Positions 39,990-64,000 of a DNA stretch of 64,000 nt are shown piece after piece. Origin of the DNA: Sarea resinae (taxonomy: Eukaryota). The DNA is taken from assembly GCA_026026165.1 (NCBI GenBank), contig JAPEUD010000067.1:62001-126000 (forward strand), read 5' to 3'. Below the pieces are notes generated by a model. The model ran no database searches. It was given only the letters and a program-made list of their open reading frames with translations, and had not been told where the DNA came from. The first letter of the stretch is position 1. Each line of letters opens with the position of its first letter. The translations under genes and the position numbers were made by a program.

Positions 39990-40770
39990 TCGGGTCTAGG
40001 ATCTTAAGACTTAAGCTCTTCTTCACTGGAGTCCTAGCCGTTTGCTTTGCTGCTATAAGGTTTACTACTGTGTAATGTAATCACCCTTAGAGCTAAATCT
40101 ATACTGTCTATATAATATTTAAATTGATTATAGAGTTATAAGATTTCGTGTAGCTACACTAGTGCGTGTCTTTATACTTGATTACCTTAGTATCTTTACC
40201 TTTTAACATTTAATAGTAAAGAAGTAAAAGCAATTAGTGAGAGATACTAAGAGCAATTAATACTAGTATATATAGAGAACTAGTAGAGAGGTAGTAAATC
40301 CCTCTAGGTAGCACTAGTAGCAGATAGAATTAGAGCTCTAAGTAAAAGTTGCTTGTTTAATTCTATTTACTTACCTAAAGTAGATAGTAAGGTTAGTACT
40401 CTACCTTACCTTAAGGTGTATAAGCTGTACTACTACTAGCTTAGGAGATATCTAGAGCTCTAGCTGTAATAGTTAGAGTATATACTCTAGTGACTAGCTT
40501 GTCTTAGTAGTATAAATTATATAGACACACTATAAATTATACTAACTTTTATACTACCTAAGGTACCTACCTAGGTACCTTAGTATATATTTATAAGGCA
40601 AGCTTAAGACAAATAAGCTGTTAAAGGCATTATATATATCTTAGAATTTAATTAGAAATTTCTACTAGGTAACTTCTTTCTAAGCTTTATTATTACTGTG
40701 TTACTTATCTCTCTTCTCTTTCCTCTTAGATTACGCTCTTAATTCACTCTTAGTAGCCTTTAGGCTAACA
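39990..40770. repeat. Short AT-rich RIP-mutated relic of unknown origin
   Basis: Abrupt drop in GC, TpA excess and CpA/TpG depletion, starting right after the UPF0662 stop. Confidence 0.7.
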
Positions 40771-40941
40771 AATCGGTCACGTGGCCAAGACGTTAGCCGG
40801 ATAGTCAGACTCTTAAATGTGAAGGTATAAACAGACAGCAGGCAAACTCCTTTAACTAGTCGCTAGCCCCTAGTCTTCTGCCACATATTTCATAAGACAG
40901 CGTATCCGACTGCTCCTTTTGCTCTCTAGTCAAAGGAAACC

Positions 40942-42334
40942 ATGGCCAGAGATGTGCCGCGATTTTCAACTTGCTCGGTCGCGAATTGCAAACGGCCTGG
41001 CGTCCGAGGTTCGAGCTGTGGCATCTGCAAGCGACATCTTTGCAAAAAGCATCTGGCACCTTCATTTCATACTTGCAACTTAGATGTATGTCACACCTAA
41101 CATATGTGACAGGACGAAATTGACGGTTGCTATAAAGATATCTGATGCAGCCTGGAAGAAGCAAATTGAAGACGAAGTCGAAGATCTTCTCGCTCAGATT
41201 AATATTCACGAATTGGTCAGTAGAGCTTCGACTCTAAGGGACAACATAGGTTGCAAATTCCAGCCCGGAAAATATATTGGCAATGGAGCCATTATGGGAT
41301 GTGCAAACTACCATGCATGGCTTCATTTTGAGGACGGCGAAAAGTGGCTCGTCAGAATCCCAAGGAAAGGGCTAGGTGACGTTCCAGATGACCTGATTGA
41401 ATATTTCGTTACCAGCGAGTATTCAACTCTCAAATATCTTGGATCCACTCAAGTGCCCGCCCCCAAGGTGTTCGGCTATGGCCTGACTTCCGATCCGTCT
41501 AACCGCGTGGGCGTAAGCTATCTGCTCATGCAAGCTCTACCCGGAAATCCATTTGACCCATATGATGCGACGGCCGAGCAGAAGGACACTGTTTTTAAAC
41601 AGCTAGCCGAGATATTGATTGAGATTCACAAACATCCGGTTCGGAGAGCTGGCTCTCTAGTCTATCGTAATGGACGTTTCGAAGTCATGGCTGCTGCAAG
41701 CAATCGTTTCGTCGCACTAGGCCAGTATGGTCCTTTCGATAATGCGGTTGACTATCTCGTTGGCATCACCGAGAATTATCTGGATCTGATTGCGGATGGC
41801 CAGCTGTACCATGAGTATCCGGAAGATGCTTTTCTCTTCTATGTGACTCTCCGTGACAATGCCTACAAGCTTGTTGGGGACGAGACTCCCGCCAAGTTCT
41901 TCCTGAAACACGTCGATGATAAGGGCGACCATCTCCTCGTGGACGAGAAAGGCAATATAACAGGAATCATCGATTGGCAATTTGCACGATGCGTTCCGGC
42001 GTGCGAAGCTTTTGGCCCTTCATACTTCACTGCCGACTTGAATTGTCTCTACTCGGGCAAGCCTGGAATTACAGGCGATGATAGGCGGCTCGCTCGGGAG
42101 TTGAGGTTGCGAGGCGCAGACCAGCTGGCTGAACATATGGAACGAAACGAGCTTGCTAGGAGGTTTCATCACGGTTTGGCAAGTGGCTTGGCTAAGGATG
42201 AGGCATGCGAGTTGATAAAGGGTGCCTTAGTGGCATTCGGAAGAAACGACACCGTGGACTTGGACATTTGGCGGGAGCAAACACGGAAAAGGTGCGAAAA
42301 CGATCCGCGATGGCAAAGAATCAAGACCCTCTAG
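40942..42334 (+). CDS. AN1-type zinc finger + APH/choline-kinase-like phosphotransferase (copy 1)
   Basis: Exon 40942-41085 encodes C-x4-C-x9-C-x2-C-x4-C-x2-H-x5-H-x-C, followed by intron 41086-41137. Kinase motifs MGCANYH, WLVRIP, FFLKHVDDKGDH and GIIDW. Confidence 0.88.
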
Positions 42335-44046: not shown

Positions 44047-45511
44047 ATGTTTGACAGCACTTCAGTTTTTCGTTTCTGGACGTGTAGTATCAAAGATTGC
44101 TCTCGAGCCAGTGCGATAGACGTTGGCCATTGTGAGCACTGCCTTAAACACTACTGCGCCATTCACTGGCGCTCTCCATCCCACACCTGTGAGGTAATAG
44201 GCTGTTTACTATATAGCAGCTCGACCACTAATGCCTTTGCAGAGACAACCTTTGGATGATGACACCTGGACAGAGAACCGAAACAAGGAGCTACATGCTC
44301 TCAGAAACAGTATCAACGACGAAGCTCTCCTCCTTCGCGCCTCCAAACTCAACCATGGCATTGAGTGTCGACTCGACGAAAGAAGTCCAATTGAGCACCG
44401 CATGGTTGGTGGGATGCACATGCATCTCCGAATCCAGTTTGCCAATAGCTCTCATACTTGGCTCGCGCGAATTTTGCGTGTGAACTCGACGTCGTTCTCG
44501 GATGAATTCACCAATTACATCCTACTTAGCGAATGCGCGACCATGCAGTGGTTACAGGCCCTGGCTCCAAAGGTGCCCAGTCCTAGGCTTTATGGCTTTG
44601 GTCTACGCAATGATCCCTCTAACCATGTAGGCGTGGCTTATATGCTTGTGGACGAGCTCCCTGGCACGCCTTTGAGCTCGATGAACCTCTCAGCCGATGG
44701 GACACGAAAGGTATACCAGGATTTAGCCGACAGCTTGTTTGCTCTATGGGCTCATCCATTTGATCGAATTGGATCTCTATTTCTTGGAGTCAATGGCAAA
44801 GTTTGTATTAGCGCGACAGCAGGAGACCGGACAGGTACTCTTCCTAGGCTTGGGCCATTCAAAGACGCCAAGGAATACTACGTAGCCTGGTGCGAGGCTT
44901 ACCTGGACCTGATTGCTTCGCAGCAATTGTTTGTTCGATTTCCAGTAAACGCCTATTTGATCTTCCATTTCCTCCGCGAGCAAGCCAGACAAGGAAAATG
45001 GAGCGACTTCGAAGAGAACATCGACAGAGGGCCCTTCTATTTGAAGCACATGGACGACAAGGGCGACCATATCCTCGTAGATGAGGACACGCTCCGGATT
45101 ACCGGCATCATTGACTGGACCTTTGCACGTATTGTGCCTGCGTATGAAGCATTCGGTCCCTCGCTTGTCACGGCGGACATGACCGATATGTACTCTGCAG
45201 TCGTGAAACGGACAGTGCAGGACGAGATACTCGCTGCTGCACTTAGAGAAAAGAACGAAACTTTGGCACAATATGCTGGAGCCTCTGACAAAATCCGCCG
45301 CTTCACCTTCGCGCTCAGTATGGGCGTCGACATCTCATGGGACGAGGCACTAAAGCTATTCGAAGGCCTCATTGTGACTGCTAGCGGCCTCCAATGCGCT
45401 GAGACCTTCGATTGGAACCAGTGGCGCGCTGAGTATTTGGCTAGATTAGGCGACAGCGACGAGAGGCTGATAGCGCTTATGAATGTTCTAGATAGTGATC
45501 TTTTAGATTAG
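44047..45511 (+). CDS. AN1-type zinc finger + APH/choline-kinase-like phosphotransferase (copy 2)
   Basis: Exon 44047-44193 encodes C-x4-C-x10-C-x2-C-x4-C-x2-H-x5-H-x-C, followed by intron 44194-44242. Kinase motifs GGMHMH, WLARI, FYLKHMDDKGDH and GIIDW. Confidence 0.88.
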
Positions 45512-45689
45512 CAGCGAAGATTACAATGACTTCACTTTAGAGAGTATATATTTTTTTTATCAAAGCTACTATATATAAAGATTATACGCTTTATTTATAG
45601 GCACTCTACTACTATTTAACAATGCTTGCAATAGGATTATAGTGTTTAAATCTATTTTTTACTTTTAAGACTGTTATTATAGTCTTAAT

Positions 45690-47319
45690 ACCTTCTATAG
45701 GTGTTATAAATGTTCTATAAGATTCTACAGGGTTCTACTACTTTCTATAGGGTTCTACCACATTCTATCAGCTTCTATAGGTGTGTAGGAGCTTCTAGAT
45801 GTATCTATACTGTCTTGTAACAGTCTGTAACAGTCTAGGTACTTAAGAGTGACTAGAATTAAGGTTATAATTCTAACACACCCCCTTAAGCTTAATTCTA
45901 TAGGATAGGTATGCAATTTAGAACACCTATAGAACTTGGCTTTTTGTAACAGTTGCTATAGGTACGCAGTTTTATGCACCTATAGAACTTGCACCTATAG
46001 AACTTGTTTGTTCTTTAGGTGTAGGCTGTATCTGAATAGCCTTTAGGACTTCTAGCCACCTTTGAGTGCTAAGTGCATCAGCAAAAAGGGAGGTGTGCTA
46101 CAGGTGACTACAGGTGCGCTGTGTAACCCACGTTACCTATGTTACAAACAGTCAACGCTGTAGCGCTACATGTACAGTAGTTTAGGTAGCAGCTACTGTA
46201 GTACTACATAGAATACACTGACTTTGTATATCTTCTACACAATATATTAGTGTCAACTACATGACTATTCTTTTACCTACTAGTAGACTACAGTAGATTC
46301 TAGTAGTTATACTTACTAATCTCTAGAGATTAGATAAAATACATGTAGACACCTACTGTATTACTAATGAATATAGAATACACATGTATTTTAGTAGCTA
46401 CTATATAGCACAGATAACTTATTATATAGAGTCTATACAGTGCGAAAAATAGTGTTAATTATACAGTGAATCTACTAACTAGGAGAATAGGTTAGTTAGT
46501 TAATAATAATGTAAACTATTAATATACTACCTAGTATCTGCTCTAGCTAATTAGGTTTGTAATTTAACTTGTTCTTTAGGTAATAGGCTTAGATCCTCTA
46601 GATCCTCTTCTCTATTATTATAGAACCCTTCTATTAGAACATAGACTTTTCTAGGAGTTAAAGTATTGCTATTAGGGTAGCTGCTCTAACTAGATTTGTT
46701 AATCTAATAGTTCTGCAGATAAGGCTTACAGACTAGATAAGGCTAGTCTAGTAACCTATTAACTAATAGTGTGTTAGTAGAACAATAGTCAACCTAACCT
46801 GTTAGAAGGTAGCACAAAGATATAAGTAGAGGAAGGTGCTAAAGAAGTATAGTATAGAATGATTGTGTATTTTAAACTTAGAGATTCTAGCTATAGAGGT
46901 GTAAGGCAGTTAATATATAGACTTAACTGACTTACTAGAAACTTCTAGTGATAACTAATTACATAAGTGATTTGTAAGCAATAGGCTGACAATGACATAG
47001 GCTTTGTAAGAAAGTTAGGAGATAGTTGTGTAACCCTTATATTATAGAGTTCTATAGATATCTAAGAAATTCTATAGACTTCTAGATAGTTCTAGAACAT
47101 TCTAAGAGGTTCTAGAAGGTTCTAGATGCTTAGTCAGCATGTAGTGATGCTTAGTCAGCATAGCTATAGAATCTTCTAGAATGTTCTATAAGGTTCTATA
47201 GAGTTCTATTAGCTTCTATAGGTTTGTAGAAGCTTCTAGATGTATCTATACTATTATATAACATTTTATAACAGTCTAGATACTTAAGAGTGACTAGAAT
47301 TAAGGTTATAATTCTAACA
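45690..47319 (-). mobile_element. Internally deleted copia-like LTR retroelement (RIP-mutated)
   Basis: LTR 46800-47319 is bounded by TGTTAGAA..TTCTAACA and followed on the minus strand by GGTTA. A second, partial LTR copy ends at 45878 and is preceded on the minus strand by a polypurine tract AAGGGGGTG. Only ~0.9 kb lies between them. Confidence 0.65.
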
Positions 47320-47899
47320 TAACCTAAGTAATCTATTATAATCTAACACATAACTAGAGGTCTATAGATACTAATTAAATAATACATAGTTATAGCACCT
47401 TAGGTAATAATAAAAGGTAATAATAAAAGTACAAGCAATATAAGAAAATAGAAGCAATAGTAATAACGTTACTTTTCTACTATATAGTAGATAGTGCATT
47501 CTAATAGAATTATAGATACAATCTTAATAGTAGCTAGATCTAAATTATATAAGAGGCCTACTTAACTAGAATAAGTGTCTTATCTACTTATATCTAGTGT
47601 AGTCTTCTAACTACTTAAGAACCTAATTTATCCTCTAATAAGCTTAGGTTATATAAGGAGTTATAAGTCCTAGAGATAGAAGCACTATATTAGATATAAT
47701 GTAGCGTTCCTTGCCTTAATGTTTTTTAAGTAGGCTTAGGCTGCCCTTACCTACTACTATCTTTCTCTTTACTAATATAGCAACTCTTAGCAACTTTACT
47801 ATTATAATTTTTACTATTAAAGGTATTCCTTATCTTATTAGCACTTGTATCCTTAGTTAGACTCTGTTATAAGAAGATATAGCGTTTATAGTAGCGAAT

Positions 47900-50400
47900 T
47901 ATTATTAGGCTCTAAATTGTATTAGGGTTTAGGTTGCTTTAGTAATAGTAAACAATATTGCATGCAATATTAAAGCATTGCTTAACTCTAACTGTTAAGA
48001 CTAGGGCTGCTAGAATGTCTCTTACTACTTGCTTAATTGTTAGGAGTTTAACTATAGAGTGTTGCTAGGACTAATTATAAGTTAGTAAGTTTAAAGCGTT
48101 ACAATATTTTGTTACTTACTTTAAGTAGTGTTTAATAAGTAGTAGAGGAGATAGGTATAGAAAGGTATCTTATAGCCTTAATAAGTCTTCTATTCTACAA
48201 TATAGACTTCTGCTAATTTGTAAAAGCAAGTGAATTAAGGGTTAGATAAAGAGGTGTTAGTGTTAGAGTAATATATAGAGTGCTACTCTTAAATTTCTAG
48301 TAGTTAGCTTTATAATACTATAGAAACTGTTGCTAATACTTCTTTATATAAGTTGCGCCTTAGTCTAGACTCTAGAAGAGTAGAAGAGAGAAGTTAGTAA
48401 TATCTCTATAAGCGTTATAAGATAGCGTTACCTTATATGTATTAAGTTTTTACTTTAGGTCTAGAATGCAAGTAAGACTATATAGCTCCTTACTACTATC
48501 TGCTGTTGCACTATAGTATTTGCTTAGGTAAGATAGTAAAGCCTTAATTGCTTTACTAAGGCCTTATTTCTATAGAATATCCTTCTCTAGAAGCTAAGCC
48601 TTTTAGGACTTAAGGTAATTAAAGAGTTTTCTATATGCAAACTAGGTGAGATAAATTGTAACCCTACTAGTTGTAGAAAGGGCTTTAGTCTACACCTTAA
48701 ATAGTTGTAGAATAGCAATTAGATACTCTACTTACTTCTACTTAGTGTTATTTAATTAAAGCTTTTTAGTGATCTAAGATAATTCTTCGCTTTAAACTAG
48801 CTTATTAATTGCATATTGTAGTACTAAGGCATAGGCAAGCATATTAAATGTTAAGTTCTATTAGGTGCAAACATCTTAAATAGGATGTAAGGCTTTGCTA
48901 CCTTAGATATTAAGAAACCTTTTAAGGCGCTAAGGTAATACCTAGATAGCAACAGTGATTTAGCAGACCTAAGGATATATATAAGCAAGAGCATTACTAT
49001 CTGCAGTTACTATAGAGGTACCTTCTAGAGTGTATTGCTAAATATAATAACACTATTAGTTATATCCTTAAGCTCTATTTCTTTCTACATTGTTACAGCT
49101 GTATTGTTTGTTGCAATCGCTAAGAGTGACTTAAGAAGTGCAGTTATAACAAGTTAAATAACATGTGCTATATATAGAACAGCAGAGATAGCTAGGTTCT
49201 AGTTAAAATCCTCTCTTTTAAAGAGGATATTATAAAAGGCTGTTTTTAATGTGCTATTATTTGCAGTATTATCTGTAGTAAGGCTAAGCAAACGCCTTTA
49301 AGATAATATAAGCACTGTTCTTTAATAGGGCACTAGAACTTACCTAAAGTTTATATCGCTATAGAACACTATAGACTGTCTCTATAAGGCGTTGCCCTAT
49401 ATACTACCTAGTTATATACTTAAAGCTAAGTAGCACTTTATAGTAGGACTAGTTAGAAGAGATATAGTATCCTATTATTACTATAAACAAAAGATTATTT
49501 AGTGATGTCTAGCAATCTAAAGCAATAGAAACCTTTGTTATTAGACTAAGGTCTTTTAGAAGAGCTGCCTTAATATTGCAAACATAATTAGAGATATGTG
49601 CTTAAATTATAGACTGCCTTTAGATGTAGAGAGTAGGACAAAGCATGTGTAATGTTCTTTAGAACTAAGCATTCTCTACAGTATAGAACAGTAGATTTAG
49701 ATTAATAACTATATTTAGAAGTTGTTTCTCCTATCGCTCTTAAGTGAATATAGGAAGATTATCCTAAGTAGAAGTCTTTTACTGTTTCTAGAAAAAGCGC
49801 GTTACTATTTGTCGTTATAATATTAGAGACAATACATACCTAGAGACTTGTCTTAAGCGTTATCTATACACTTAACTGCTTTTTCTTAATGTATTGCTAT
49901 GTTATTAGGTAGTTCTTTAGTACTAATGTTCTAGTGTTCTTTATTAATAGATGCTTTAGGATAAAGCTATATAGTCTGCAGCAGACAGCTAGTTATCTAT
50001 TGTTGCTTTTTATATATTAGTCGAAATATTCCTAGTATTTACTATATCTTTGTATTAAATCCTATAGTAGATTCCTAAATTGTGTAAAATTAGCACTATA
50101 TTTTGTATTAGTCTACTAGGTAAGAAACATAGCTGACTTGTTGCTATTAAAGATAATATAGCGATAATAAGAAGTGTAACTAAGTGTAATAGAGGCCTTA
50201 ACTCTCTTAGAGAGTAGAGACTCTAATTCGCGTTACTAATTGTTGTTACTTAAATAGGATTAGGAGTATATACCTAATTGTAGGTCTAACTCCTAGCTAA
50301 TTGTATAAGAGGTAGAGGAAGCTAAGCTCTCCTAGCTTAAAGTTGTAGTTGCTATTGTATAACCTAGGTGTAGAGGCTAGTATAACAATATATAGACACT
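47900..50400 (-). pseudogene. hAT-family transposase, RIP-inactivated
   Basis: VSIALDC*TS (~49503-49532), SLTTDN (~49270), PI*DVCT**N (= PIQDVCTRWN, ~48856-48884), KYY..CILD (~48460-48522) and a dimerisation-domain pattern RDILAA..TV.V..CFNIA (~47905-48045). The 5' end is approximate. Confidence 0.85.
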
Positions 50401-50599
50401 ATAGTAAAGAGACTGCATTATAAGTATATATAGAGGAGTAAAAACACAAACATAACACGTTAAAACTGTGTAGCTAGCTGTAATTAGCTCTATAACAACG
50501 TGTAAAAAGAAGGCTAGTATAGGAGTTAAGTAAAGTAATAATAATTAGTAACAGCAAATATAAAGCATAAGTAGCACAATACTAATATTAGGCTATTAG

Positions 50600-52057
50600 A
50601 ACAGACCTACTAGCTAAGAAAAAGACTAAACTACAGATAGTGCTAGTTGTAACAAGGGATATATTATTAGTGTTTTACTACTTCTACCTAGTGCTTATTT
50701 TAGTATAGTAAAAAGTCACTAAAGAAAGTAAGGCGACTTAGTATGCACACACTGCTTAGGATTAGAGAGGTATATTAACAATAAGAGTTTATAATCTATT
50801 CTCTAAATATGTAGTAAAGAAGCTACAAAATCTACTAATGTTTGTCTTAGACTAGTAATGCATTTTAGTAACTCCTAAGCCCTTATTACTAATAAAAGCT
50901 ACTACTAATTATCTAAGAAAGGTAACGCAATTTAGTAACTCTCTAATTATCTATAGCTATATTAGATAAGCTACTAGCTAGTCTCTCTTTATCTCCTTTA
51001 TTAATATTGTCTAGTTTGTTATTATCCTCTATATCTAACTTATTAATAAACTTGTTATTACTTTCTTCTCTAAGAGTAACCTTATTATTGCTAATCACTA
51101 CCTTAATATTATCGCTGCTAACTAATAAGGCCTTACTCTTAGAATCTATTATGTCTCTAGGGTTTAGAAGAGCCTTAGGATATTCGCAATTAGCTAGAAA
51201 GCGCTAAAGCTCTATTCCTATATCTTTAGAGCTAGCTATTAAGATTCTAGTCTAGAAGGTAGTGTAGATCTCTTGCTCTTATCTGCAGATAAAAGAGGCT
51301 ATACACTTATATAAAGCATCTGCTATTCCTCCTTTGTTATTAGTCTTTAGAGAGAGTGTCTGTAATTTTATTAGCGTTATGTAATTAAAAAAGCGTTACT
51401 AAAATCAGTTACCTTTTAGCTTAGCTCTAAGACTTTGTCAGCTAGCCTAGCCTTAGCTATTTCGTTAAATTTCTCTTTAGCTTTCTACTTCTCTTTGTTT
51501 AATCTAGCTATAATCTTAGACTTAATCTACGCTAAAGATCTCTTCTCTTTCTATCTCTTCTCTTCTAACAGCTTAAAGCGCTTAACTAGTATCTAAGCCT
51601 TCTTATCTTTACTAGCCTCTTAATAGGCAGCTGTTTTAAGTAGAGCAACCTTAGCATTGTGTTTAGCTTTTTAGTCTGCCGCTCTAGCCCTTATTAGTGT
51701 TAGCTTATCTAGAGTTATCTAAGACTTTGTATTCTAAGTATAAGAAGTAAAGGCCTTAGTAGAGTACTAGCTGTAGTCTTTTTACACCTTAATTTTATCT
51801 TCACTACTCTTCTTATATAGCCTATGTTGTTTCTAAGACAGGTTAGTTATATAGTTAAAAGCGTTATTAAAGACTGTTACCTTTTGCATAGAGAACCTAG
51901 CATTATATTCAGCTAATGCTGTAGCAGTCTCCTTATCTATTTTAGTGTCTATAATTATATCTATTATATTGTTATCCTATTAGAGTTAGTAAGTGCTCTA
52001 TATAAAGATATTACTAATAAGCGTTACCTTTTCTATCTTAATCTTCTTCCTAGACAT
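50600..52057 (-). pseudogene. RIP-mutated spliced gene with charged coiled-coil character
   Basis: ATG at 52057 (MSRKKIKIEK), intron GTAACG..CTAAC..TAG, then a K/E/A-rich helical reading. The 3' end is approximate. Confidence 0.45.
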
Positions 52058-53139
52058 CTTAAGTCTTATTAGATTAAGACTATTAGATTAGATTAAGATT
52101 ATTAGATTAGATTAAGATTATTAAATCAGATTAATATTATTAAATCAGATTAATAACCTTTGTTAGATTAGGAATCTATATCTGAATTTCTTTTAACTTA
52201 AGTGTTAGTTACTATCTGTAGTTACTATTATATAATATAATAGTAGAACTTACTAAGGTGATAAAAGTATGCTCTTCTAAGAAGTTTTAGTAGAGAAATT
52301 AGGTATCCTTTTTCTAAATTTAGATTTTCAGCTAATATAGTATAGACTTTTGTTCTTAGTTACTATATACTGTTACTATTATATAGTGCAATGTCTAGAG
52401 AGAATAGAAATTAAGTTTGTAGACAATTAGTGAAAAAATTAATAGTAGAGGAGATAGAAGAAGTTGTAAGTAGTGAGTAATTAGTTAAGGAAAGAAGTAA
52501 GAAGAGTTAAGGAAGAAAAAGGTTAAAAGCTGCAAGTATTATGCTTTAAAAGTCATATAACTCTATAGTATATGCTGCATTCACTGTTTTTTGCATTCAC
52601 TATATTTAAGATGTTTAATGATTTTTGTGCTAAAACTTAATCCTTATATAGAGTTATACTACTAGCACACGCGGCATACTATACTGCTACACTTCTACTT
52701 ACCTATATATCTAAGTGCTAAATCTTCCTCTTACTACCTACACACCTCTACCTTACTACCTCTCTTCTCTAGCTATTATACCTCTATAGATTTCCTTTAG
52801 ATTATTATACTTCTTTAATATCCTAGCTAGTAACTTAGAAAGGTAACTAGCATATGTATGCCTGCTTAATTAGAGCTATTAATTCTACTTTACCTTACTA
52901 TTCTCTAAAGTTAGGTGAGTTATAATCTAAGATTATAAGGTAACAGCATCTAGTAACGCTAATCTGTTTTATAGATCTTACACTATTATTAAGTCTTATT
53001 ATTATTATTATTAAGTCTTATTATTATCCTTAAGTCTTATTATTATCACTAAATCTTATTATTATTATTAAGTCTACTCTATATAAGTCTTTTTAATAGT
53101 AACAGAATATAGTAACTAACTCTTACTTAAACAGCAATT

Positions 53140-53760
53140 ATAGGGCGCACTAAGCAACATGCAAAGTGCTTTGACTTTAACTATCCTACTCTCTCTAAGG
53201 TTATAAAGTCATATTAGAGTAGATAAGACAAATACTATAAGAGCTTTAATAAGCGCTATAAGAAATAGGATAAGCAGCGTTGCAATGCCTTAGCTAGGAA
53301 TAAAGCTTTTACTATAGCTAAGCTAGTAATAAATAATGTCTATAGGAAGACTAAACTAGGCAGTAAGTTCTTTATCTACTGTTCTATAGTAACGCATATT
53401 AGTAACGCAATGTCTTCTAGCAAGCGCGCTTTGTCAGATAAAATACTATTAAAAAGGTAGCTAACTCTTATTGCTAAAGACAGCATTCTACTGCTTAGTC
53501 TAAGAAGTAGTAACTAATCTGCATCTATCTAAGTCCTTTTATTTCTAAGGCTCTGCTATTAATACTATTTAGGAAGCGATAGAACTTTATATATCTAGCT
53601 TCTTTAATAGTAAGTCAAGCTTAATGTTCTAAAGTAACAGCATATAGTAACGCTCTTTTCAGACTCTAACAACATAGCTATCTATGCTAATAGGGTTACA
53701 ATCTAGCAGAAAGACATGCAATTAGTAAAGAAGACAATAGAGAATTTAGCAGTCTACTCT
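53140..53760 (+). pseudogene. RIP-mutated small spliced gene with H3-tail-like N-terminus
   Basis: ATA(ATG) GGG CGC ACT AAG CAA CAT GCA AAG TGC reads (M)GRTKQHAK(C/R). Basic exon to ~53362, then GTAAGT intron to ~53420. The 3' end is approximate. Confidence 0.45.
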
Positions 53761-56700
53761 AAATAGTTATATAGTGTTTACTAGGTAGTTATAGCGCTTA
53801 ATAAGCATATTTTTCTCAGGGGTTTAGGGGTAAAAGAGGTATAAAGGCAATAGGTTTACAGATCTTTTCTTTACAATAAGTGTTACTATTAGTTGTTACC
53901 TTTAACAATAAATTAATAGAGGTAAACCCTAGTAAATCATTTTAATTATAATCTAAGGAACATTGTGACATGTAAATTCTATAACACTAACTTATATATA
54001 TTTCTATTAACTGTAAGCTATTTTAAGATTATATGTAGTAGTGCTAAGGAAAAACTAACCTGATTTACTACTAGATTAGATTTTATATCTATAATCTGTT
54101 CACTCTAGAAACCTATATAGGGTTAGTAAATACAGCCTTTAATCTGTTTAACCTAACCTATATGCTAGCCTAATTGCTATTATTAATAGCTTTCTTTATT
54201 AGTAGAAGGATAGCCTTTTACTACTAACTGCTTAGAAAATTCTATGTAGCTACCTAGCGCTAGTAGACCTCTAGGTGTTTATTAGCTATTATATTATCTA
54301 TTAGCTGTTATATCTAGCTAGTTACTTACTACTTACACTATCTCTAGTAAAATCTTAAGAAGTAAAGCTCTTTTCTTTCTATTTAGAGAGAGTGTAATAG
54401 AGTGTAGTAGACACAATATATATTAGCTAATAGGTGATTTGTTTAAAAGCATCTAATGTATAACTAATATTTGCTAGTTTCTAGACTCTGTTAAAGAACT
54501 CTTTAAGTATAACACATATAATTGCTAGGTAGAATAATCTCTTTTTCTTTCTCTAAAAACTATTAGATAACTAAAATAAGTAGAGAGATTTATATATAGA
54601 CAGATATATCTTAATAGTTAAAACTATCTTAATCTAGTAGTTAACTTACTTTCCTCTTAAGTTGTTCTAGTTTAGTAAGAGGCAGATTATATAGGTCTAC
54701 TACTAGTTAATAACACTATAATATAATATATCCTTATTACTAGCTTATTCTAATTAATAGCTAATAAGATTTAATTATTTAGAGTTAGTAAGTAGATAGT
54801 AGAAATATTACTTAATAGTCTTACTTACTATAGGTTTAATATATATAGGTAGCTCTATTTTATATTATCTAGAGTCTTTAATAAGATAAGGAAATTAATG
54901 CTCTATCTTAATTGCCTTTGCCTTTATATAAGCCTAGTTCTATATATTAGCACAGATAGTAGCTATACTATTGCTTTTTAAGAAAGAGTTCTAAGTAATA
55001 ACATATATTTTTATTATTACCTTAGCTATTAGATAAATATCCTAATACCTATAGTGTAGATAGCACTCTTTTAAATGCATTTAAACCTTTATATATACTC
55101 TTATATCTAGTGTAGGAAGCTGACTTAAACCTGCACTCTAATTATTTATAAATATCTATAGAGTGCTAGATAATTAGTGTAGTGTTCTTAGTGTATCTAT
55201 CTTATTAAAAACATATATAGAGGTAGAGTCTAAGTTAATACTAACTGCTCTAGAATAGAGACTAGAGAATAAGAGTCCTTTATTATTGCTTAGAACCTAT
55301 TATCTATAAGTAAAATTAAAAACAAGTACTCTAAGAGTAAGACTTACTAATAAGAGTAGAGGTAGTATTAACAATTTATTCTAGAAGGTGTTTATTAACA
55401 GATCTTATATATAAAGCTCTCTTAGTAGTTGTCTGTTAAAAAGGTTAGGCTTCTAAAGAATATCTCTTTAGTTAGTTTATTTTACTGCCTTCTAACTAGT
55501 AGTAGACCTATATATAGAATGTCTATCTATTAGAAGATCTTAGAATCTTATAGGTAATTCTCTTACAGTTTAATTTGCCTTACTACTTATTTATTGCTGT
55601 TCTACTAAGTATAAAGTAGCCTAAGTGTTATTAGATATATATTATCTGCTTATTAGTATACTCTCTTTACAATTAACTAAGTTCACTTTAATATGATTTA
55701 GCCTAAGGCTTATTATTTATCTTCTTATTATATAAAGACACTCTTATTTATTTAGATTCTTTCTAGACAGACAATTGCACTTAGATACTTCTTTATCTAT
55801 TAGTGTACTTATCTAGCTATTAAGAGTTGCTAGTATAAGTTGACTTTCTAGACCCTTAGTGCTATCTAACTAATATCTCTTTCTCTAAGTAGGTGTATTC
55901 TATATTATTAGATTAAGTGAATTATTACTATCTTCTATGTTTTTAGCAGCAGATATAGCGCTAACATTAGATAACTAACTAAGTAGGCTTTGTATTAGAG
56001 ATATTATAGCTTGCTTATAATTCTCTTTATTACTATCTAATAACATTAGCTATAGTTGCTTTTAGACTAGAGAAGTAGTAGTAGTAATCACTAGATCTAA
56101 ACTATATTTAGTCCTTTAGTAGTAGTCTTTTATTAAGTGTAAGTATTATAGAAGGCAACTACTTTGTTTAGTATAGATTAGATAAGTAGAGATAGAAACA
56201 AGTGTTATTATTAGTAAAGTAGTTAAGTTTTTATTCCTTAGTAGACTAAATATCTTGCTAAGAATAAGTCTAGAGTTATTTAAGAGGTATTGTAAAAGTT
56301 ACTAGCTTCTCTATATAGAGCAGATTTAGATAGCTAGGAGTTTAGTGTGTAGAAGACATTAGTATTAAATAGGAATTTAAAGAGAGAGAGAATTATTAGT
56401 CTAAGTAGAGATAAGTATTATCACTTAAATTATATCTTTACAAATTAACAGATAATTATATCGCTATTAGAATAACTTATATAATTAATTTAGATTTATA
56501 TATACTTAGACTAATTAAAATAACACTAAACAAAATAAAAGAGACTAACTTAAAGTAGATTAGCAGATATTAGCTTCTATACCTTATTAAAGTTATCTAA
56601 AAGACACTTATAGTTTAGAACTAACTATTGCTACAATCTCTACTAGGCTGCTAGAATAGAGTATAGTAGAAGAGTAGGTAATAACAGTCTTAAGAGTAGT

Positions 56701-56818
56701 AGATATATATATCTACTGCTCTTAGTATTATAAAGTCGCCTATAATTAAATAAAAACTTATATTAGCTGTGTTTATTACATGTCCTATTTGTCTTTATCT
56801 CTTTTATATATTGTAGAG

Positions 56819-59800
56819 TTAATAATAGAGGTTGTTATCTTTAGTATCTATATTATCTTTACTGCTAATCTTAACTTTAACTTGTAGCAGAACTAGCAGA
56901 TTGTTCTTCTTTAAGGCTGTGTTATTTAGGATACCTCTTAACCTCTAGGTAGCTATAAGTGTATTCTTAATTATAGACTTAGTGTTAATAAATTAATATA
57001 AAGTCACCTTATTATACTAGCTAATACAGTAAACTCTATTAAGTGCTTATTACTTAGAGGTGTCTATATAATTAGGTTTAAAGACAACTACTAGATTCGC
57101 GCGAATTAAGGTTAAGCCTAGTAATATTATACCTATTGTCTTAACTAAGTAAAAAGGTTCTAAGCTAGAGAACATATCTATAATGCCTTAGAATTATTCT
57201 ACTAACCTTAAGCGCTTTGCTATAGAGATTCTGCTATAGAATAGAGCAACTAGCTTATATCTAATATATTTTATCTACTATATATCTGCTATTAGCCTAA
57301 GTATATTATCTAGTAGATAAATACTACTTACTATTACAATAATAAAGGCTATAATTAGGAATACAGTAAAGATAACTATCTTTTCACTCTCTATCCTTAA
57401 ATTCACTCCTATATTATTAATAAGATTATCTAGTGCTTTTAATTTAGAGAATAACTAGCTAAGTATTTCTAGATTGTTATACAACAGATATAATTCCTAA
57501 TCCTTAGTAGCTATAGACCTAACGCTTAATAAGCTCTAGTCTAACCTAGCTAGATTAGAGTAGGTAAGGCCTAGGAATAAAGAGATAATTTGTAGTCGCT
57601 ATATATATTAGAAATATATTATTAAAGTAATACATTATCCTTTATTTAACTCTAGAATTTAGTTTGTTCTTACTACTATAACAGCTTGCTATTGTTTATA
57701 TACTGTCTTCTAGTAGTTATTGCTAAACTAGACTAATAATTTATATCTGCAGAACAGTAAGAGGTTAATTAGTAGGTAGCTGTCTAAGTCGACTGCATTT
57801 TTATCCTATTAGATTATTAGCACGCTAAGGAAGCTAATAAAATTCTAGGCATATTAATTAAAGTCTTTATTAGTAGAAGGTAGTTGCAGTCTGTTAGGTT
57901 TTGCTATGCAATTAAATAGATTTTTATACTAACTTTTAATAAAGTCTAACTTTTTAGGCAAGCATTTTTATCTAATGCAAGAGAGATTAGTTGTCTATTA
58001 GGTATATATAAGAATGTTTACCTTCTCTCTTAAGTCTCTAGGTATAATAAATAGAGTGCTAGAGAGGAACTATATTATAAGCTAGTGTTCCTTATAGCTT
58101 TATCTTAAGGTAGTTAGGTCTTAAATTAGGTTAGTGTTCTTTAATTTAATAATGTGCGCCTTATCTACTACTATCTACTAAAATTAAGTTTCTGCCTACA
58201 AATTGCAGCAAAGTTGCAAACACTTAAACAATGTTACTAGGATAACATTTAATCTTATATGTTTGCTACTAGAGTCTGTTTCTATTAAGTCTGCAAACTT
58301 ATATTCCTATTAACTATACTTAAGAACTATTAGGTTCTTAGTAATCTATTATACAATAAACGACTTTTAGTATTCTATTACCTATATATAGGTAAGATAT
58401 GCTAGGTATATAACTATATTTGCTTCTTTATCTACAGTGATTTAAGAGGTTATAGATCCTAGTTAATATAGGCATTATATCTTATAGAGGTTATTACTAG
58501 GACACTTAACGCTATATTTAGTATTGTTATCTATATTGTCTAATAAATATAAGTGTAAGTAAAATGTTATATAATATTTAAAGTCTTATACAGATAATAC
58601 CTACTACTAGCCCTTAGATATCTTCTGTTATAGATTTGCTAACTCTTTATTATATCTAAGTGATTATAGTATAAGGTCTATAAAGTAGTAATAAGAGCTA
58701 ATGTTATTAGTATCTGCTAGTAGATTAAGCGTTAGCTATTAATTTAAGTACATATTAAAGAGACACTATAGTAGACACACACCTTTCTAAACCCTATCCT
58801 ATCTGCTAAAAACCCCTCTCTAATTCTGTTGCTTTTATTGCGTAATATAAATATAATAGCTATAGCTTAATATAGTAGTAGTTAAATAGGTGCTTAAAGA
58901 AACAGTAGCTTTATAGGTATTTAGGTTATTAATGCAGTGTGTTTAGGAATAAAGAATATAGCTACTATATCCTTCTATATTTAGAGTGTGTCGTGTTAAA
59001 TTACTAGACTATTTTAAATAACTGTTTAGCGTTTTACTATCACTAGGTTTATTCTCTTAATTAGGTTATCTACTCTCTCTAATTTGTTATACTATTTGCT
59101 AGCAAAAGCACTAAGGTCTTAGAGGCCTATAAAGTAAGGATAAAAGTTAGTAGAGGTTGTTACTTATAATCCTAGTACTTACTAAGCAGATAATGTTCTG
59201 TGCTATATAGATAATTATTAGGTAGCAGATTATTATATAGAGTATTATTAGGTGGCAGATTATTATATAGAGTATTATTAGGTAGTAGATTGTTATTTAG
59301 AGGATTATTAGGTAGTAGATTGTTATTTAAAGGATTATTAGGTGGCGGATTATTATTTAGAGGATTATTAGGTAGTAGATTGTTATTTAAAGGATTATTA
59401 GGTGGCGGATTATTATTTAGAGGATTATTAGGTAGCAGATCATTGTTTTTAACAAGTAGATAATCCTTATTATTAATGTTATCTTTGTTGCTATTATTAT
59501 TATTAATGTTATCTTTGTTGTTATCTTTATCCTTAACATTCTCTTTATTAGTATCCTTGCTATTAATGTCTTCTTTATTAGCCTTATCTCTTATTAGGTT
59601 ATATATAAGCTTATTAGAAATATTATCTTTAATTTGCAGTGATAGGTCTATAAAGAGTTAGCTTTATAGTAATAAGGAATAGTACTGCGTTTAAGTCTAG
59701 CAGCTTACACTTAACGTTATAGCAACCTAGCTTAGGAACTAGTAATAGACATTGTGTTTCCTTTAGCTAATATAGTAATAACTTAGGTGTGCTACTAGAC

Positions 59801-60000
59801 TAACTAACGCTTGTTGCAAGGCCTAGCAACTAACTCTTTAGTAGGTGTTAGCTAGTCTTAGTAGTAGAGAGTAAGGTAGTATTTAGTGTTATTACATTTA
59901 GGTTTGTATAATATGTCTCTAGTTAGATAATTAAACAGTCTGTTGCACTAGACAGTTAACAACTATATTAAGACTAGATATAATACCTTATAGCAGACAG
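56819..60000 (-). pseudogene. SNF2-family ATPase/helicase gene, RIP-inactivated
   Basis: Motif I GFLADRIGFRK (= GFLADGMGFGK, ~58784-58820, followed by an intron), motif II IVVDKAH (= DEAH, ~58150-58175), motif III *FLSSTLF (= WFLSGTPF, ~58050-58075), motifs V-VI GLTLIRANLVVVFKP..**ALNRVYCIS* (= EP..QALDRVHRIGQ, ~57015-57125). The 5' end is approximate. Confidence 0.82.
59213..59440. repeat. 30-bp tandem repeat (7-8 copies) in the N-terminal part of the SNF2 relic
   Basis: Units GGTRGYRGATTRTTATWTARAGKATTATTA. The de-RIP minus-strand reading is approximately SATQQSSKQQ. Confidence 0.85.
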
Positions 60001-62068
60001 TGTATATACCTAGTCTAGGTCTTATCTATATAGAAACTAAGTTGTCACTAGCTTGCTTAAGGTTTCTGCGTTTTACATCCTATATAAGGTTAACAACTAG
60101 AAATCAATGTACTCCTATAAAGAGACACTTATAATATAGAATACAATTAGTTATAGGCCTAACTTAAGTACTAGTACAACCTCTTTATTATGTTCTAATC
60201 TAATTCTCTCTCTCTCTATATCTGTCTTAATCTTATTAATAATTGCTGCTTATAGGATAAACCTAGCAATAATATTACAAATACTATCTATAGTTAGAGA
60301 TAATAGTAGGAAAAGTTAAGTGCTTATCTTATTATCTATTGTTATATACTATTTAGCTAGTTAGTTGTCTATTAACTATTAGTAAATGTTAGTTAATAGA
60401 TAAATATATATACCTCTTACTTATTAGTAGTCTTATAAGAGAAGGTGCTATGTAGATAGTTAGTAGATAAGAAGGTATTAGTGTATAAAGAGTAGTAAGG
60501 CTACTAGGTAGAAGGGTATTAGAGTTAGATTAATTGTTTATTAGCTATTAGCAAGTGCTATTTAATTAATATAATTAGATGTCTTCTACTTATAGATGTC
60601 TTTATAAGCTGCTAAACAGTCTAGTTAGTAGCTTTATACTAAGAAGAAGCTAGTGTATAGATAGTAACTACTAGAGAACTACTAAGTAGAAAGGTATTAG
60701 AGTTATATTAAATGTCTATTAGTTGTTAGCAAGTGCTATTTAATTGATATAATTATATATCTCTTACTTATAGATATCTCTATAAGCTACTACAATGTTT
60801 GTTTAGTAGCTTTCTACTAAAAGAGAGCTAGCTAGCAAGGGGTAGCTAAAGTACTAAAGGTATTAGATAAGAGCAACAGCAAGGTTCTACTTTTAGATTG
60901 TAGTTCTTTCTTTATATTGTCTTATAGCTTCTTACAGATATCTTATACAATAATAAATAGGTGTTTCTAATTGTAGCTCTATCTAGCAGCTTATCTTCTA
61001 ATTTAGTCTGCAAATAGTATTAGAAAGTTAGCAGACTATATTATATCCTCTATTATAGTGTTAACTGTATAATTTCCTGCTGCTTAAAGGTTAGTGCAGC
61101 TGTAGTCAGATAATACTTACTAGATAGCCCCTTATAATCTAGTCTTAGCTTTATTTAATGTGACACTTAGATTTAAGTACACTTCTAATAGCCTCTTTTT
61201 TATAAGTTCTTATACTTAAGAATTAGGTCTTATAACTGTCTCTTATTCTAGTTGACAAACTATATCCTATTATATCTCTTATTAGTTATATCTATTGTAT
61301 AATAAGAGAGTAGCTTACTTAGCTAGATTGTTATAATATATTAAGAGGTAGAGAGATAACTAGTAAAGAGAATAAGTAGAAAGTAATTAAGGCTAAGAGT
61401 ATAGCACTAAACTTAAGTTTAGTATAATAAGAATAATTAGGCTGCTAGGCTAAGAGAGATATAACAAGCTAAAAGATAAAACATAAGAGAATATAAGTAG
61501 AGAGCTAATAAGGCTAGAGATAAAGTTAATATCTTAATAGAACAATTATCTAAATTAGTAACAAAGTAAGGTTATATCTAGTAGGAATTCTTAATTAGGC
61601 TAGACTAGGTAGTAAGGGTTTTATAGCTTTAATATTAGATAAATAATGTGTTAGCGCAGTGTAAGGTGAATAAGAGTAGTAGCAGCAAACAAGAGTAGTA
61701 GAAGTAAATAGAGATATAAGGTAAATAGAGATCTAACTAAATAAAACAAAGAATAATAACATTATAACATGTAAGAAAGAAGATAAAGAAATGTTGCTAT
61801 TATTAACTGTTTCTAGCTATTAGCACTTAATACTATTAGTATATCTAGTGTGTAATATTGCACCTCTAACTAATATTATATCTAATATGCAATATATTAT
61901 ATAGATAATAGTTTGCTTGTGTTTTAGACAGCTATTAGTGTAGGAGTAAGGTTAAAGCAATATAAATAGCAGCACTACTTATATAGTGTCTACTTAGTGA
62001 TAAAAGTCTAATAGTTAGTCTACTACTTAAGTGAACTATCTGCTAATATAATGTTAAGATAGAGTCTT

Positions 62069-64000
62069 TGTTATCGGCACTGGTGCATCCATGGTGGTAC
62101 CAGGCCCCTGTAGCTTAGCGAGCCAGCATATTAGCGCTTGCAGGCTCTTAGCAGTTTAGAAACTAATCCACTTATCATCATCATACGGACCGTCCATGGT
62201 CAGCCCGTGCCAAATGGTATCGACGGCGCGTTCTTTGCTTTTGCTTTGAAATTGTCTTCTCGAGATCCATTATATCTCACGGAGACCCCAGGTTGTCATC
62301 AAACAACCTACACGTTAGAAACGGTCTCACACCTAGAGCCAGCCGTTTGTTTACTACGGACTTTCCATAGTCCCTCCCACGATGCGATAGCCCTATGGCT
62401 CGAGACTCAGCTTTGCAGCCTGACCAAGTTCTCCAACTCGCTGATCAGCTCCTCGCATTACAGAGGCATCATCCAGATCTCCTACCACCGGAGACATCAA
62501 TATTACTTGACCAGCTAAGCACGCACCGCCGACCGAACACACGCCCAACGTCACGACCCCCCTCAAGTGGGAACTCAAACGGAGAATCCGACGGATTTCC
62601 TGGCATTTGGACCACTGATTCAGCCCGCCGAAACACCGCTATTGCCAATTTCGAGAACGGTGCCTTTCAACTTCAACAGTCACGACGCACCGGTGGATTA
62701 CGTCATTCGCTAGTCCCACCTTCAGTTGGCAGCATCGCTGGACCTAGCATTGGTCATTCTACAACTTCACCCGACGAGCCTTCCAACTCAGAAGACATCC
62801 CAACAGACACGGGGTCATCGTCACCCGAACAATCAGCAGCAGCATCGGGAGTTACCGAAGACGTCATCGATCCGGCAAGAATCACACCAGCCCGACCGAA
62901 CGACAACGCCCACACACGTTTGGAACCACCACGACGTGACCGTGCCCAATCAAACGAGCCCATCATGTCTCAATTATCCCCCCAAGCCCTTGAACAAATT
63001 CAAGCCATGATTACTGCTGCAGTACGAGCAGGCGGAAATCACAACGGTCCCCCCGGTCCCCCTGGCCCTCCTGGCCCACCAGGAGAACCCGGAGAACCCG
63101 GAGAACCCGGCGAGAACCGCTATACCGGACAATGGAAAGCCGCCGAGATCGGCCTCTTCTACCCCAACCTCCCCGGAGGAGACACCGACGCTCATACCGA
63201 CGTCGTCGACAAAGATAATAAAACTTTCTATCGCGATGTGTACGCTTTCACCAATCGAGTCCGAGTCGCTGCCCTAACGCGGGATCCCACAAAAATACGC
63301 CAGAATCTGGACTCTTGCCTGCGAGGAGAAGCCGAGCAGTGGTGGAATACCGAATTGTCTGAGGTCACTAGACTAGGCCTTGTCGCCCACCCGAACGGAG
63401 TCGAAGAATGGTGCAAAGCTTTAGAGAAAAGATTCAAGCCTACCCCAAGTGCTTCCTGGAATAAATACCAGAACACCCGATACACTGTGGAGGATGCGAG
63501 GAGTCACCGCAGCCTCGGAGAATATGTGAGCACCTTGGTAGCAGCGGCAAAGGGTTGTGGACAAGGTGACTCCGAATTCGGTCTTGTTACCCAAGCCTGG
63601 ATGCATTTGGCCCAGCCGTTACGCAAGTACATTGACGAACCTACCGAAGACACAACGCTAGAGGGTTTTGCAGAGATACTCCGAAGGAAGCAGACAAACT
63701 GGTTCGACGAGTTTAGACGTCAACCTGCACAACCTACAGGCCGACAAGGTAATAATAATCGCAGTCAACAGCAGCAATCCAACCTACAATCACAGTCCAA
63801 TGCTCAGTTCAACCCGCCTCAGTACAATAACGCTTACAATTTCCGAAATCAGGGCTACCAACCGAACTGGCAACAGTCATATCGTTCCCCGTGGCAACAA
63901 ACTCCGTGGCAAAACCGGCCTTCTTGGCGTCCAGGGTCGGCACGAGGAAGAGGACAGCTGCCTTTCCGTCCTCAACCACGCCAAATAACGTCGGGCGGAG
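62069..64000 (+). mobile_element. Intact (non-RIP) LTR retrotransposon 5' end, probably Ty3/gypsy; continues beyond window
   Basis: Abrupt switch to balanced base composition at TGTTAT (62069). Tentative short LTR to ..GTGCCA 62212, followed by AA-TGGTATCGACGG (PBS-like), then a long gag-like ORF. Confidence 0.75.
62395..64000 (+). CDS. Gag-like protein, open at the window end (missing from the ORF track)
   Basis: Uninterrupted frame from ATG 62395 (alternative ATG 62965). Capsid-like segments include EIGLFYP, YRDVYAFTNRV, CLRGEAEQWWNTELS and WCKALEKRFK. Confidence 0.8.
   Translation, partial: MARDSALQPDQVLQLADQLLALQRHHPDLLPPETSILLDQLSTHRRPNTRPTSRPPSSGNSNGESDGFPGIWTTDSARRNTAIANFENGAFQLQQSRRTGGLRHSLVPPSVGSIAGPSIGHSTTSPDEPSNSEDIPTDTGSSSPEQSAAASGVTEDVIDPARITPARPNDNAHTRLEPPRRDRAQSNEPIMSQLSPQALEQIQAMITAAVRAGGNHNGPPGPPGPPGPPGEPGEPGEPGENRYTGQWKAAEIGLFYPNLPGGDTDAHTDVVDKDNKTFYRDVYAFTNRVRVAALTRDPTKIRQNLDSCLRGEAEQWWNTELSEVTRLGLVAHPNGVEEWCKALEKRFKPTPSASWNKYQNTRYTVEDARSHRSLGEYVSTLVAAAKGCGQGDSEFGLVTQAWMHLAQPLRKYIDEPTEDTTLEGFAEILRRKQTNWFDEFRRQPAQPTGRQGNNNRSQQQQSNLQSQSNAQFNPPQYNNAYNFRNQGYQPNWQQSYRSPWQQTPWQNRPSWRPGSARGRGQLPFRPQPRQITSGG

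Follow-up and report, generated by a model that had tools for sequence, protein, structure and literature searches.

A RIP-inactivated hAT transposon relic of Sarea resinae and a paired GTAAC signal shared with neighbouring gene-like sequences

Does an extinct transposon in the genome of the filamentous fungus Sarea resinae comprise more than its transposase gene, and what is the short word that recurs throughout it and its surroundings? This question is raised by positions 47900-53760 of a 64,000-nucleotide (nt) stretch of contig JAPEUD010000067.1 (assembly GCA_026026165.1, positions 62,001 to 126,000 of the forward strand), which was analyzed as a whole and is called the window here. A first-pass annotation had described the interval as a single multi-gene element with a hAT transposase relic, two spliced genes (genes A and B below) and a recurrent GTAACGC motif, and had proposed that it encodes an anti-silencing system. 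Our analysis points to a hAT transposon killed by repeat-induced point mutation (RIP), with a credible dead gene A and a doubtful gene B, tied together by a pair of GTAAC words that appears to be associated with introns. We hold this to be the best explanation overall, albeit with modest confidence.

The G+C content is about 48% up to 45.5 kb of the window, drops to 26-33% across 45.5-62.0 kb and rises to 51-54% beyond. In every 2-kb subwindow of the A+T-rich block TpA/ApT was 1.6-2.0 and (CpA+TpG)/(ApC+GpT) was 0.45-0.63, compared with 0.5-1.2 and 1.0-1.5, respectively, outside the block. These indices are the signature of RIP. Thresholds for such indices are general background knowledge; the contrast between the block and the rest is taken from the data. 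The interval forms the middle third of this 16.5-kb RIP island, a patchwork of RIP-mutated repeats in which a search of Rfam (45000-62500) returned no match at E ≤ 0.1. Calculated by segment, 47900-53760 has a GC fraction of 0.26-0.33, TpA/ApT of 1.6-2.2 and (CpA+TpG)/(ApC+GpT) of 0.47-0.79, and the RIP indices of the transposase region resemble those of genes A and B, of the spacers and of both flanks. The indices therefore agree with the earlier statement that the three genes are equally RIP-mutated, but the flanks (45600-47749 and 54401-62000) match as well and the genes are not set apart by this property.

For protein searches the RIP-damaged frames were read with an X at each stop codon. 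Read in this way, the minus strand of 48300-49799 (500 residues in one frame) matched 494 proteins in phmmer at E ≤ 1e-3, 43 of them at ≤ 1e-10. The best match was P0004 (E 2.1e-40, 34% identity). When 12 of the longer matches were scanned with Pfam, eight contained Dimer_Tnp_hAT, two contained hAT-like_RNase-H alone and two contained nothing. Alignment of P0004 to the relic with tblastn gave five collinear blocks on the minus strand, extending from 49962 to 47876, with 33-39% identity per block. For 150 listed relatives, all 188 nearby high-scoring segment pairs (HSPs, E < 1) were on the minus strand within 47789-49787; their other 53 HSPs were scattered noise (best E 0.011). A profile of 30 full-length relatives (830 positions) covered 50175-47870 with its positions 58-729, again in five collinear pieces. 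These searches bear out the hAT transposase relic that had been suggested for the minus strand, and as judged from its sequence it is a genuine hAT-superfamily transposon killed by RIP. The left boundary first drawn at 47900 does not hold, since homology continues to 47870 and the frame to about 47750-47570.

The decay of the gene has the form that RIP would leave. Of 31 stops in the alignment, 19 stand opposite tryptophan (8), glutamine (6) or arginine (5) of P0004, as is expected from RIP acting on TGG, CAA/CAG and CGA codons. The relic reads A-L-D-C-stop-T-S where P0004 has ALDCWTS, and T-stop-stop-N in place of TRWN. The named relatives of P0004 are 30-42% identical to it, belong to Penicillium, Talaromyces, Aspergillus and Coccidioides, and are labeled as "HAT C-terminal dimerisation domain-containing" or "BED-type domain-containing" proteins. 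The part of P0004 that aligns with the C-terminal remnant sits within its Pfam Dimer_Tnp_hAT stretch (residues 533-608); this match to the relic is weak and indirect. At the other end, residues 9-37 of P0004 align with 49962-49876 as part of the collinear HSP set. The weak profile match in the N-terminal region is probably the BED-finger part, and Pfam recognized zf-BED in two of the 12 scanned relatives. By extrapolation, the gene likely starts at the ATG at 50417; its 3′ end would fall, with more uncertainty, between about 47750 and 47570. The gene runs along the minus strand, interrupted by several short introns, and its product presumably worked by cut-and-paste, as its family suggests.

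Other searches did not detect this gene. Neither Pfam (three X-read minus-strand frames of 47600-51300) nor a PDB sequence search with the same X-read region returned any family or match, and in a word-indexed protein search with the 500-residue translation none of 2465 candidates scored. Since the word search missed a transposase for which HMMER gave 494 matches, word-search negatives on RIP-damaged queries weigh little. Among bacterial and archaeal genome contigs 33 pattern matches to the transposase were obtained, none of which was confirmed as a relative, and stop density in the six frames was too noisy a measure for gene mapping.

A dead transposon in a RIP island is ordinary by itself. 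The unusual part is a rigid pair of short words. GTAACGC, the motif noticed at first, has 15 occurrences in the window where 4.7 are expected; none of 100 shuffles reached 15, and 11 of the occurrences fall in 48096-53653. The enrichment is thus real, but GTAACGC turned out to be half of a larger unit, GTAAC-N8-GTAAC, in which the first bases of the two words are exactly 13 nt apart and which has the consensus A-A/T-A/G GTAAC N3 AT N TAGTAAC GC. Allowing for at most one RIP-type change we found 19 pairs (12 perfect, seven with one change), all in 48115-53899. None was present elsewhere in the window, neither in the remaining 9.75 kb of RIP DNA nor in 47.6 kb of normal DNA. The 19 pairs lie within 6.65 kb, and spacings of 10-12 and 14-16 nt yield zero or one pair; one additional pair, with 14-nt spacing, is located at 54325. 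The observed pair count was 20, against 2.5 on average and 7 at most in shuffles. The paired signal is therefore statistically striking. Within a stretch of about 6 kb each non-coding segment carries it, and the rest of the 64 kb is free of it.

The word GTAAC contains neither CpA nor TpG and is therefore immune to RIP, which is why it is still visible. This immunity alone cannot account for the absence of the pair from the rest of the RIP block. The eight-base spacer varies between pairs, transversions included, and the 13-nt spacing is constant, which suggests that selection or some other constraint acts on the pair itself. Fixed spacing around a variable spacer would also be expected of two half-sites in DNA, and the pairs could in principle be binding sites of the transposase. 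Short repeated transposase-binding words are indeed a feature of hAT elements, such as the subterminal hexamers of Ac. Here, however, the pairs are spread over 5.8 kb and not clustered at ends, the 600 nt to the left of 48098, which must contain the element's 3′ end, have none, and their strand follows the genes. We therefore regard transposase sites as a very improbable explanation.

What, then, do the pairs follow? All ten intragenic pairs are in sense orientation (five of five in the transposase gene, three of three in gene A and two of two in gene B), and the five pairs in the divergent spacer between genes A and B face the nearer gene. Four pairs of the transposase gene (49818, 49010, 48431 and 48115) all lie in gaps between collinear homology blocks, and the surplus DNA in such gaps (about 55, 53 and 112 nt) corresponds to the size of one or two short introns. 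At one site the aligned block of P0004 stops with AAG at 48432, and the GT of the pair begins at 48431, forming an AAG|GT junction. Altogether 7 of the 19 pairs are directly preceded by AAG, as a splice donor would be. The strand coupling and the AAG|GT placement argue for a role in RNA or splicing rather than for a chromatin-binding array. The introns themselves are related: two gene A introns are 81% alike over 42 nt (51376-51417 and 51846-51885), and a transposase intron resembles a gene A intron over 48 nt (75%; 48387-48434 and 51836-51883). Motif-bearing introns are about 26-60 nt long here, and what they have in common is mainly a 20-nt stretch at the 5′ side. We infer that a small family of related short introns and leader introns has kept its 5′ part, the pair, as a splice-donor-proximal RNA element. 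A literature search on TAGTAAC together with intron branch sites found nothing. One further frame change between transposase homology blocks, at 49295-49361, has about 46 nt of surplus DNA and a GTAAGT word and lacks a GTAAC pair, so that the pair is not present in every interruption of the gene.

Upstream of the transposase lies gene A, also on the minus strand. Direct reading gave four exons separated by three phase-0 introns of 51, 48 and 53 nt. Each intron opens with a GTAAC pair and has an ordinary branch-like CTAAC or CTAAT word and a 3′ AG. The spliced frame contains 14 TAA or TAG stops in 320 codons, compared with 33 in 453 codons of the proven transposase blocks. Among 14,568 windows of 320 codons in the rest of the RIP block, none had 14 stops or fewer (minimum 17), a comparison made post hoc and on the spliced model. 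Exon 3 was predicted to form a near-continuous helix, with a mean predicted local distance difference test score (pLDDT) of 77 and values above 90 for residues 80-140. Hence, the spliced gene proposed with its ATG at 52057 is supported as a reading frame, and the helix is in line with the coiled coil noted earlier. Its richness in lysine is partly a product of RIP. For exon 4 AlphaFold2 gave a pLDDT of 38, i.e., not foldable, and none of 746 candidates scored in a word-indexed protein search. With 115 further hAT relatives (full-length proteins of 830-890 residues) we obtained 0 of 316 HSPs (E ≤ 0.1) in 50000-54400, which indicates that no known transposase of this clade includes gene A or B. 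We consider gene A a credible dead gene with a helical, charged 320-codon frame.

Gene B, on the plus strand and divergent from gene A, is less convincing. Its frame is open in the sense that exon 1 has three stops in 83 codons, but this reaches just the 3% tail, the later exons are full of stops, and the frame begins with ATA, perhaps an ATG altered by RIP. The spliced gene proposed at 53140 is thus doubtful as a gene. The first-pass annotation had furthermore listed a mimic of the histone H3K4 tail, which corresponds to the predicted N-terminus of gene B (G-R-T-K-Q). Only R-T-K-Q matches the H3 tail, with glycine in place of the H3 alanine. In the six-frame translation of the window RTKQ is found twice, at 53146 on the plus strand and at 9253 on the minus strand, the latter in a non-coding frame. 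Shuffled windows gave a mean of 0.79 occurrences, and 55 of 100 had at least one. The match is at chance level and, together with the ATA start, leaves the mimic unsupported. Literature on histone mimics and H3K4 included no transposon-encoded mimic among the matches listed.

The two spacers contain pairs as well. Of the three pairs in the spacer from the gene A stop to the transposase ATG, two lie within a 67-bp tandem duplication. The divergent spacer is built as a mirror image: towards either start codon, GTAAC pairs are followed by a 19-bp tandem array (52068-52153 and 52984-53075, 4.5-4.7 copies). The pairs at 52376 and 52225 are on the minus strand, those at 52830, 52940 and 53099 on the plus strand. 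Inverted repeats of 31-46 nt connect both sides (52185-52230 with 53094-53139, and 52356-52386 with 53089-53119). When the two leaders were aligned with tolerance for transitions, the score was 194.5 (null 129 ± 16, maximum 170); we set this score aside because the base shuffle loses the local purine/pyrimidine skew. At the center of the spacer there is a perfect 12-nt inverted repeat (52556-52567 and 52647-52658), with purine-rich DNA to its left and pyrimidine-rich DNA to its right, so that the spacer as a whole is approximately palindromic.

Because the pair is shared and the introns are alike, common descent of 48.1-53.9 kb is likely; this does not imply that the region moved as one. An element-specific, gene-stranded, non-coding signal, often placed at AAG|GT, would then join all three genes, with genes A and B diverging upstream of the transposase. 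The simplest model would be one ancestral composite unit of at least 6 kb that comprised gene A next to the transposase gene, and possibly gene B too, before RIP inactivated it. A multi-gene element is thus plausible from the sequence.

Several observations weigh against this explanation. Four pairs are antisense to the neighboring gene models (50535, 50855 and 50922 in the spacer, 53899 past gene B), and for these the intron reading must assume extra, unseen transcripts. In the candidate intron 49838-49787 the pair lies on the 3′ side behind an ordinary GTATGT donor; hence, not every pair would be a donor. A simple 42-nt intron does not account for the frame change at the 49010 pair, and GTAAC differs from the usual fungal donor at position +5. 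The models of genes A and B were partly drawn with the help of the motif, so that the statement that the pair is never coding is partly circular outside the transposase. For gene A exons 3 and 4 and for gene B exon 1, Pfam and PDB gave nothing below E 0.06, which on RIP-damaged sequence is a weak negative. As had been stated before, termini were not identified: a RIP-tolerant search for inverted termini flanked by 8-bp duplications, with three right-end zones (short, 50420-50960; medium, 52060-53140; long, 53700-55000), yielded candidates of 11-15 nt, none above the controls (12-17 nt). Finally, no second copy of 47300-54400 was seen within the window, and consequently one element, adjacent elements and captured host genes are indistinguishable here.

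The last point bears on the strongest alternative, in which a single-gene hAT element (about 47.5-50.9 kb) lies beside unrelated relics, which would be further elements or host genes drawn into RIP, and the shared motif is the intron style of a donor lineage or an introner-like, spreading intron family. A 3.4-kb element would have the usual hAT layout of a transposase between inverted repeats, as outlined in the consulted part of PMC5751038. The lack of hAT homology over genes A and B and the patchwork nature of the entire block are in line with such neighbors, and multiplying fungal intron families are known (excerpts of PMC3609843 and PMC4457414). On the other hand, the pair is absent from all other RIP and host DNA of the window, the transposase and gene A introns are alike over their whole length, and the search of 50420-50960 found no hAT terminus there. 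Introner-like elements are also longer than regular introns and stably structured in the portion of PMC3609843 consulted; the introns here measure 26-60 nt. On balance we rate separate neighbors as a serious though unlikely alternative.

If the composite unit was real, one may go further and ask whether the pair served for self-recognition. In such a multi-gene hAT element of at least 6 kb, an element-encoded factor would recognize the pair: a splicing regulator would gate the production of transposase, or a VANC-like protein would mark the element's own chromatin. P-element splicing is reportedly controlled through a pseudo-donor, which is comparable in logic to gating by a splicing regulator. 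We regard self-recognition as a tentative and rather improbable extension of the composite model.

In the anti-silencing system originally proposed, the products of genes A and B would bind the motif or mimic the H3 tail and thereby shield the chromatin of the element, as VANC does for VANDAL21. A short, dense and element-specific motif confined to non-coding parts, two extra ORF-like (open reading frame-like) relics next to the transposase, four pairs outside any sense intron and 19-bp tandem arrays in both divergent leaders would all suit it. The location in introns and spacers is compatible with the analogy too, because VANC21 sites, as described in part of PMC5735166, lie in introns, intergenic and terminal non-coding regions. 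However, searches revealed no VANC-like or other domain and no relative of gene A or B (weak negatives), the transposase is of hAT and not of Mutator-like type, and the H3 match is a chance-level RTKQ behind an ATA start with glycine for alanine. The motif moreover flips its orientation with gene direction and abuts AAG in 7 of 19 cases, and VANC21 motifs are arrayed in one orientation in the same excerpt of PMC5735166. Positive evidence for transposon-encoded anti-silencing was thus not obtained. RIP, furthermore, is a mutational process, which a VANC-like protein would not reverse. A VANC-like system is a minority possibility, and as the specific explanation of this locus we consider it very improbable.

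Comparison with known systems shows where the locus stands. In its transposase core, dimerization remnant, collinear domain order, short introns and RIP inactivation it resembles fungal hAT elements; it differs from these relatives in its limited identity (33-39% per block) to the best intact one, and in that termini were not found. To our knowledge, neighboring ORF relics and a GTAAC pair are not known from described hAT elements, and a literature search for fungal hAT transposons with a second open reading frame found nothing relevant. The plant DNA transposons MuDR and En/Spm, which belong to superfamilies other than hAT, have more than one gene between their ends and non-coding repeats to which their own products bind. 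VANDAL21 is likewise a multi-gene DNA transposon, from Arabidopsis, and according to the consulted passages of PMC5735166 its VANC21 motif has nine bases, is dense in VANDAL21 only and grows as tandem repeats. The interval shares with it a putative multi-gene layout and a short element-specific motif that is dense in introns, spacers and leaders and often tandem (same passages). It differs by being hAT and not Mutator-like, by yielding no VANC homologue in Pfam, PDB and word searches, by a motif that is strand-coupled to transcription and sits at putative splice donors, and by silencing through RIP instead of reversible methylation. Introner-like elements of Dothideomycete fungi, as far as the excerpts of PMC3609843 and PMC4457414 describe them, are related spliceosomal introns in several genes, as the introns here appear to be, but exist as hundreds of copies, exceed regular introns in length and have stable structure, whereas we found 19 short units within 5.8 kb.

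What is at stake depends on which explanation is right. If intact relatives carried both the pair and the genes, this would be the first fungal hAT element known to us with accessory genes and an element-wide cis signal, and it could be used to learn how a transposon governs its own splicing or recognition. Should the pair be the intron style of a donor lineage, it would be a useful marker of horizontal origin and no more. The coordinates of the features are compiled in Table 1.

Table 1. Features of the hAT interval and its surroundings (coordinates of the window)
Feature	Position	Strand	Basis or remark
hAT transposase gene relic, RIP-inactivated	47750..50417	-	HMMER/phmmer, collinear HSPs, profile of relatives
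C-terminal hAT dimerization remnant	47870..48043	-	P0004 residues 561-614, E 0.001; profile 672-729, i-E 2.5e-5
Transposase N-terminal region, weak match	49870..50175	-	profile 58-154, i-E 0.034
Gene A relic	50943..52057	-	direct reading, translation, stop statistics
Gene A exons	52057-52028, 51976-51881, 51832-51413, 51359-50946	-	30, 96, 420, 414 nt; stop TAG 50945-50943
Gene B candidate (weak)	53140..53760	+	ATA start; GTAAC pairs 53389, 53634; N-terminus G-R-T-K-Q
Spacer, gene A stop to transposase ATG	50418..50942	.	plus-strand GTAAC pairs 50535, 50855, 50922
Divergent spacer, mirrored layout	52058..53139	.	arrays, pairs, inverted repeats
GTAAC-N8-GTAAC pair domain (19 pairs)	48098..53899	both	motif counts
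Minus-strand pairs (first G)	48115, 48431, 49010, 49818, 50249, 51412, 51880, 52027, 52225, 52376, 53899	-	
Plus-strand pairs (first G)	50535, 50855, 50922, 52830, 52940, 53099, 53389, 53634	+	

Other repeats are present in the RIP block. The left flank of the interval contains a second repeat family (45704-45890, 47043-47126 and 47130-47330) with direct copies of about 150-190 nt, of which 45733-45883 and 47174-47324 are 85% alike. The copies are composed of 10/20-bp TTCTATAG-type subrepeats, and a partial inverted copy stands just ahead of the second one. These repeats may be the ends of a different small element. Farther right, and unrelated to the hAT interval, we observed a 30-bp tandem repeat (59214-59448, 7.8 copies, 87% match) and a 178-bp tandem duplication (60501-60831, 1.9 copies, 84%).

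Both edges of the block are close to reading frames. About 400 nt past its abrupt end near 62.0 kb begins a stop-free frame of 543 codons (62371-63999) that is rich in proline, glutamine and glycine and runs past the end of the window; it matched no Pfam family above the cut-off, and tblastn found no RIP-mutated copy of it in the block. On the left side, two paralogous intron-less frames encode APH phosphotransferases (41084-42334 and 44201-45511; Pfam E 5e-13 and 3e-12). The second of these stops about 30 nt short of the RIP-mutated DNA and is itself without the RIP signature. Within the normal DNA there is a lone dip in G+C to 35% at 40001-41000, with TpA/ApT of 1.24 in 40001-42000.

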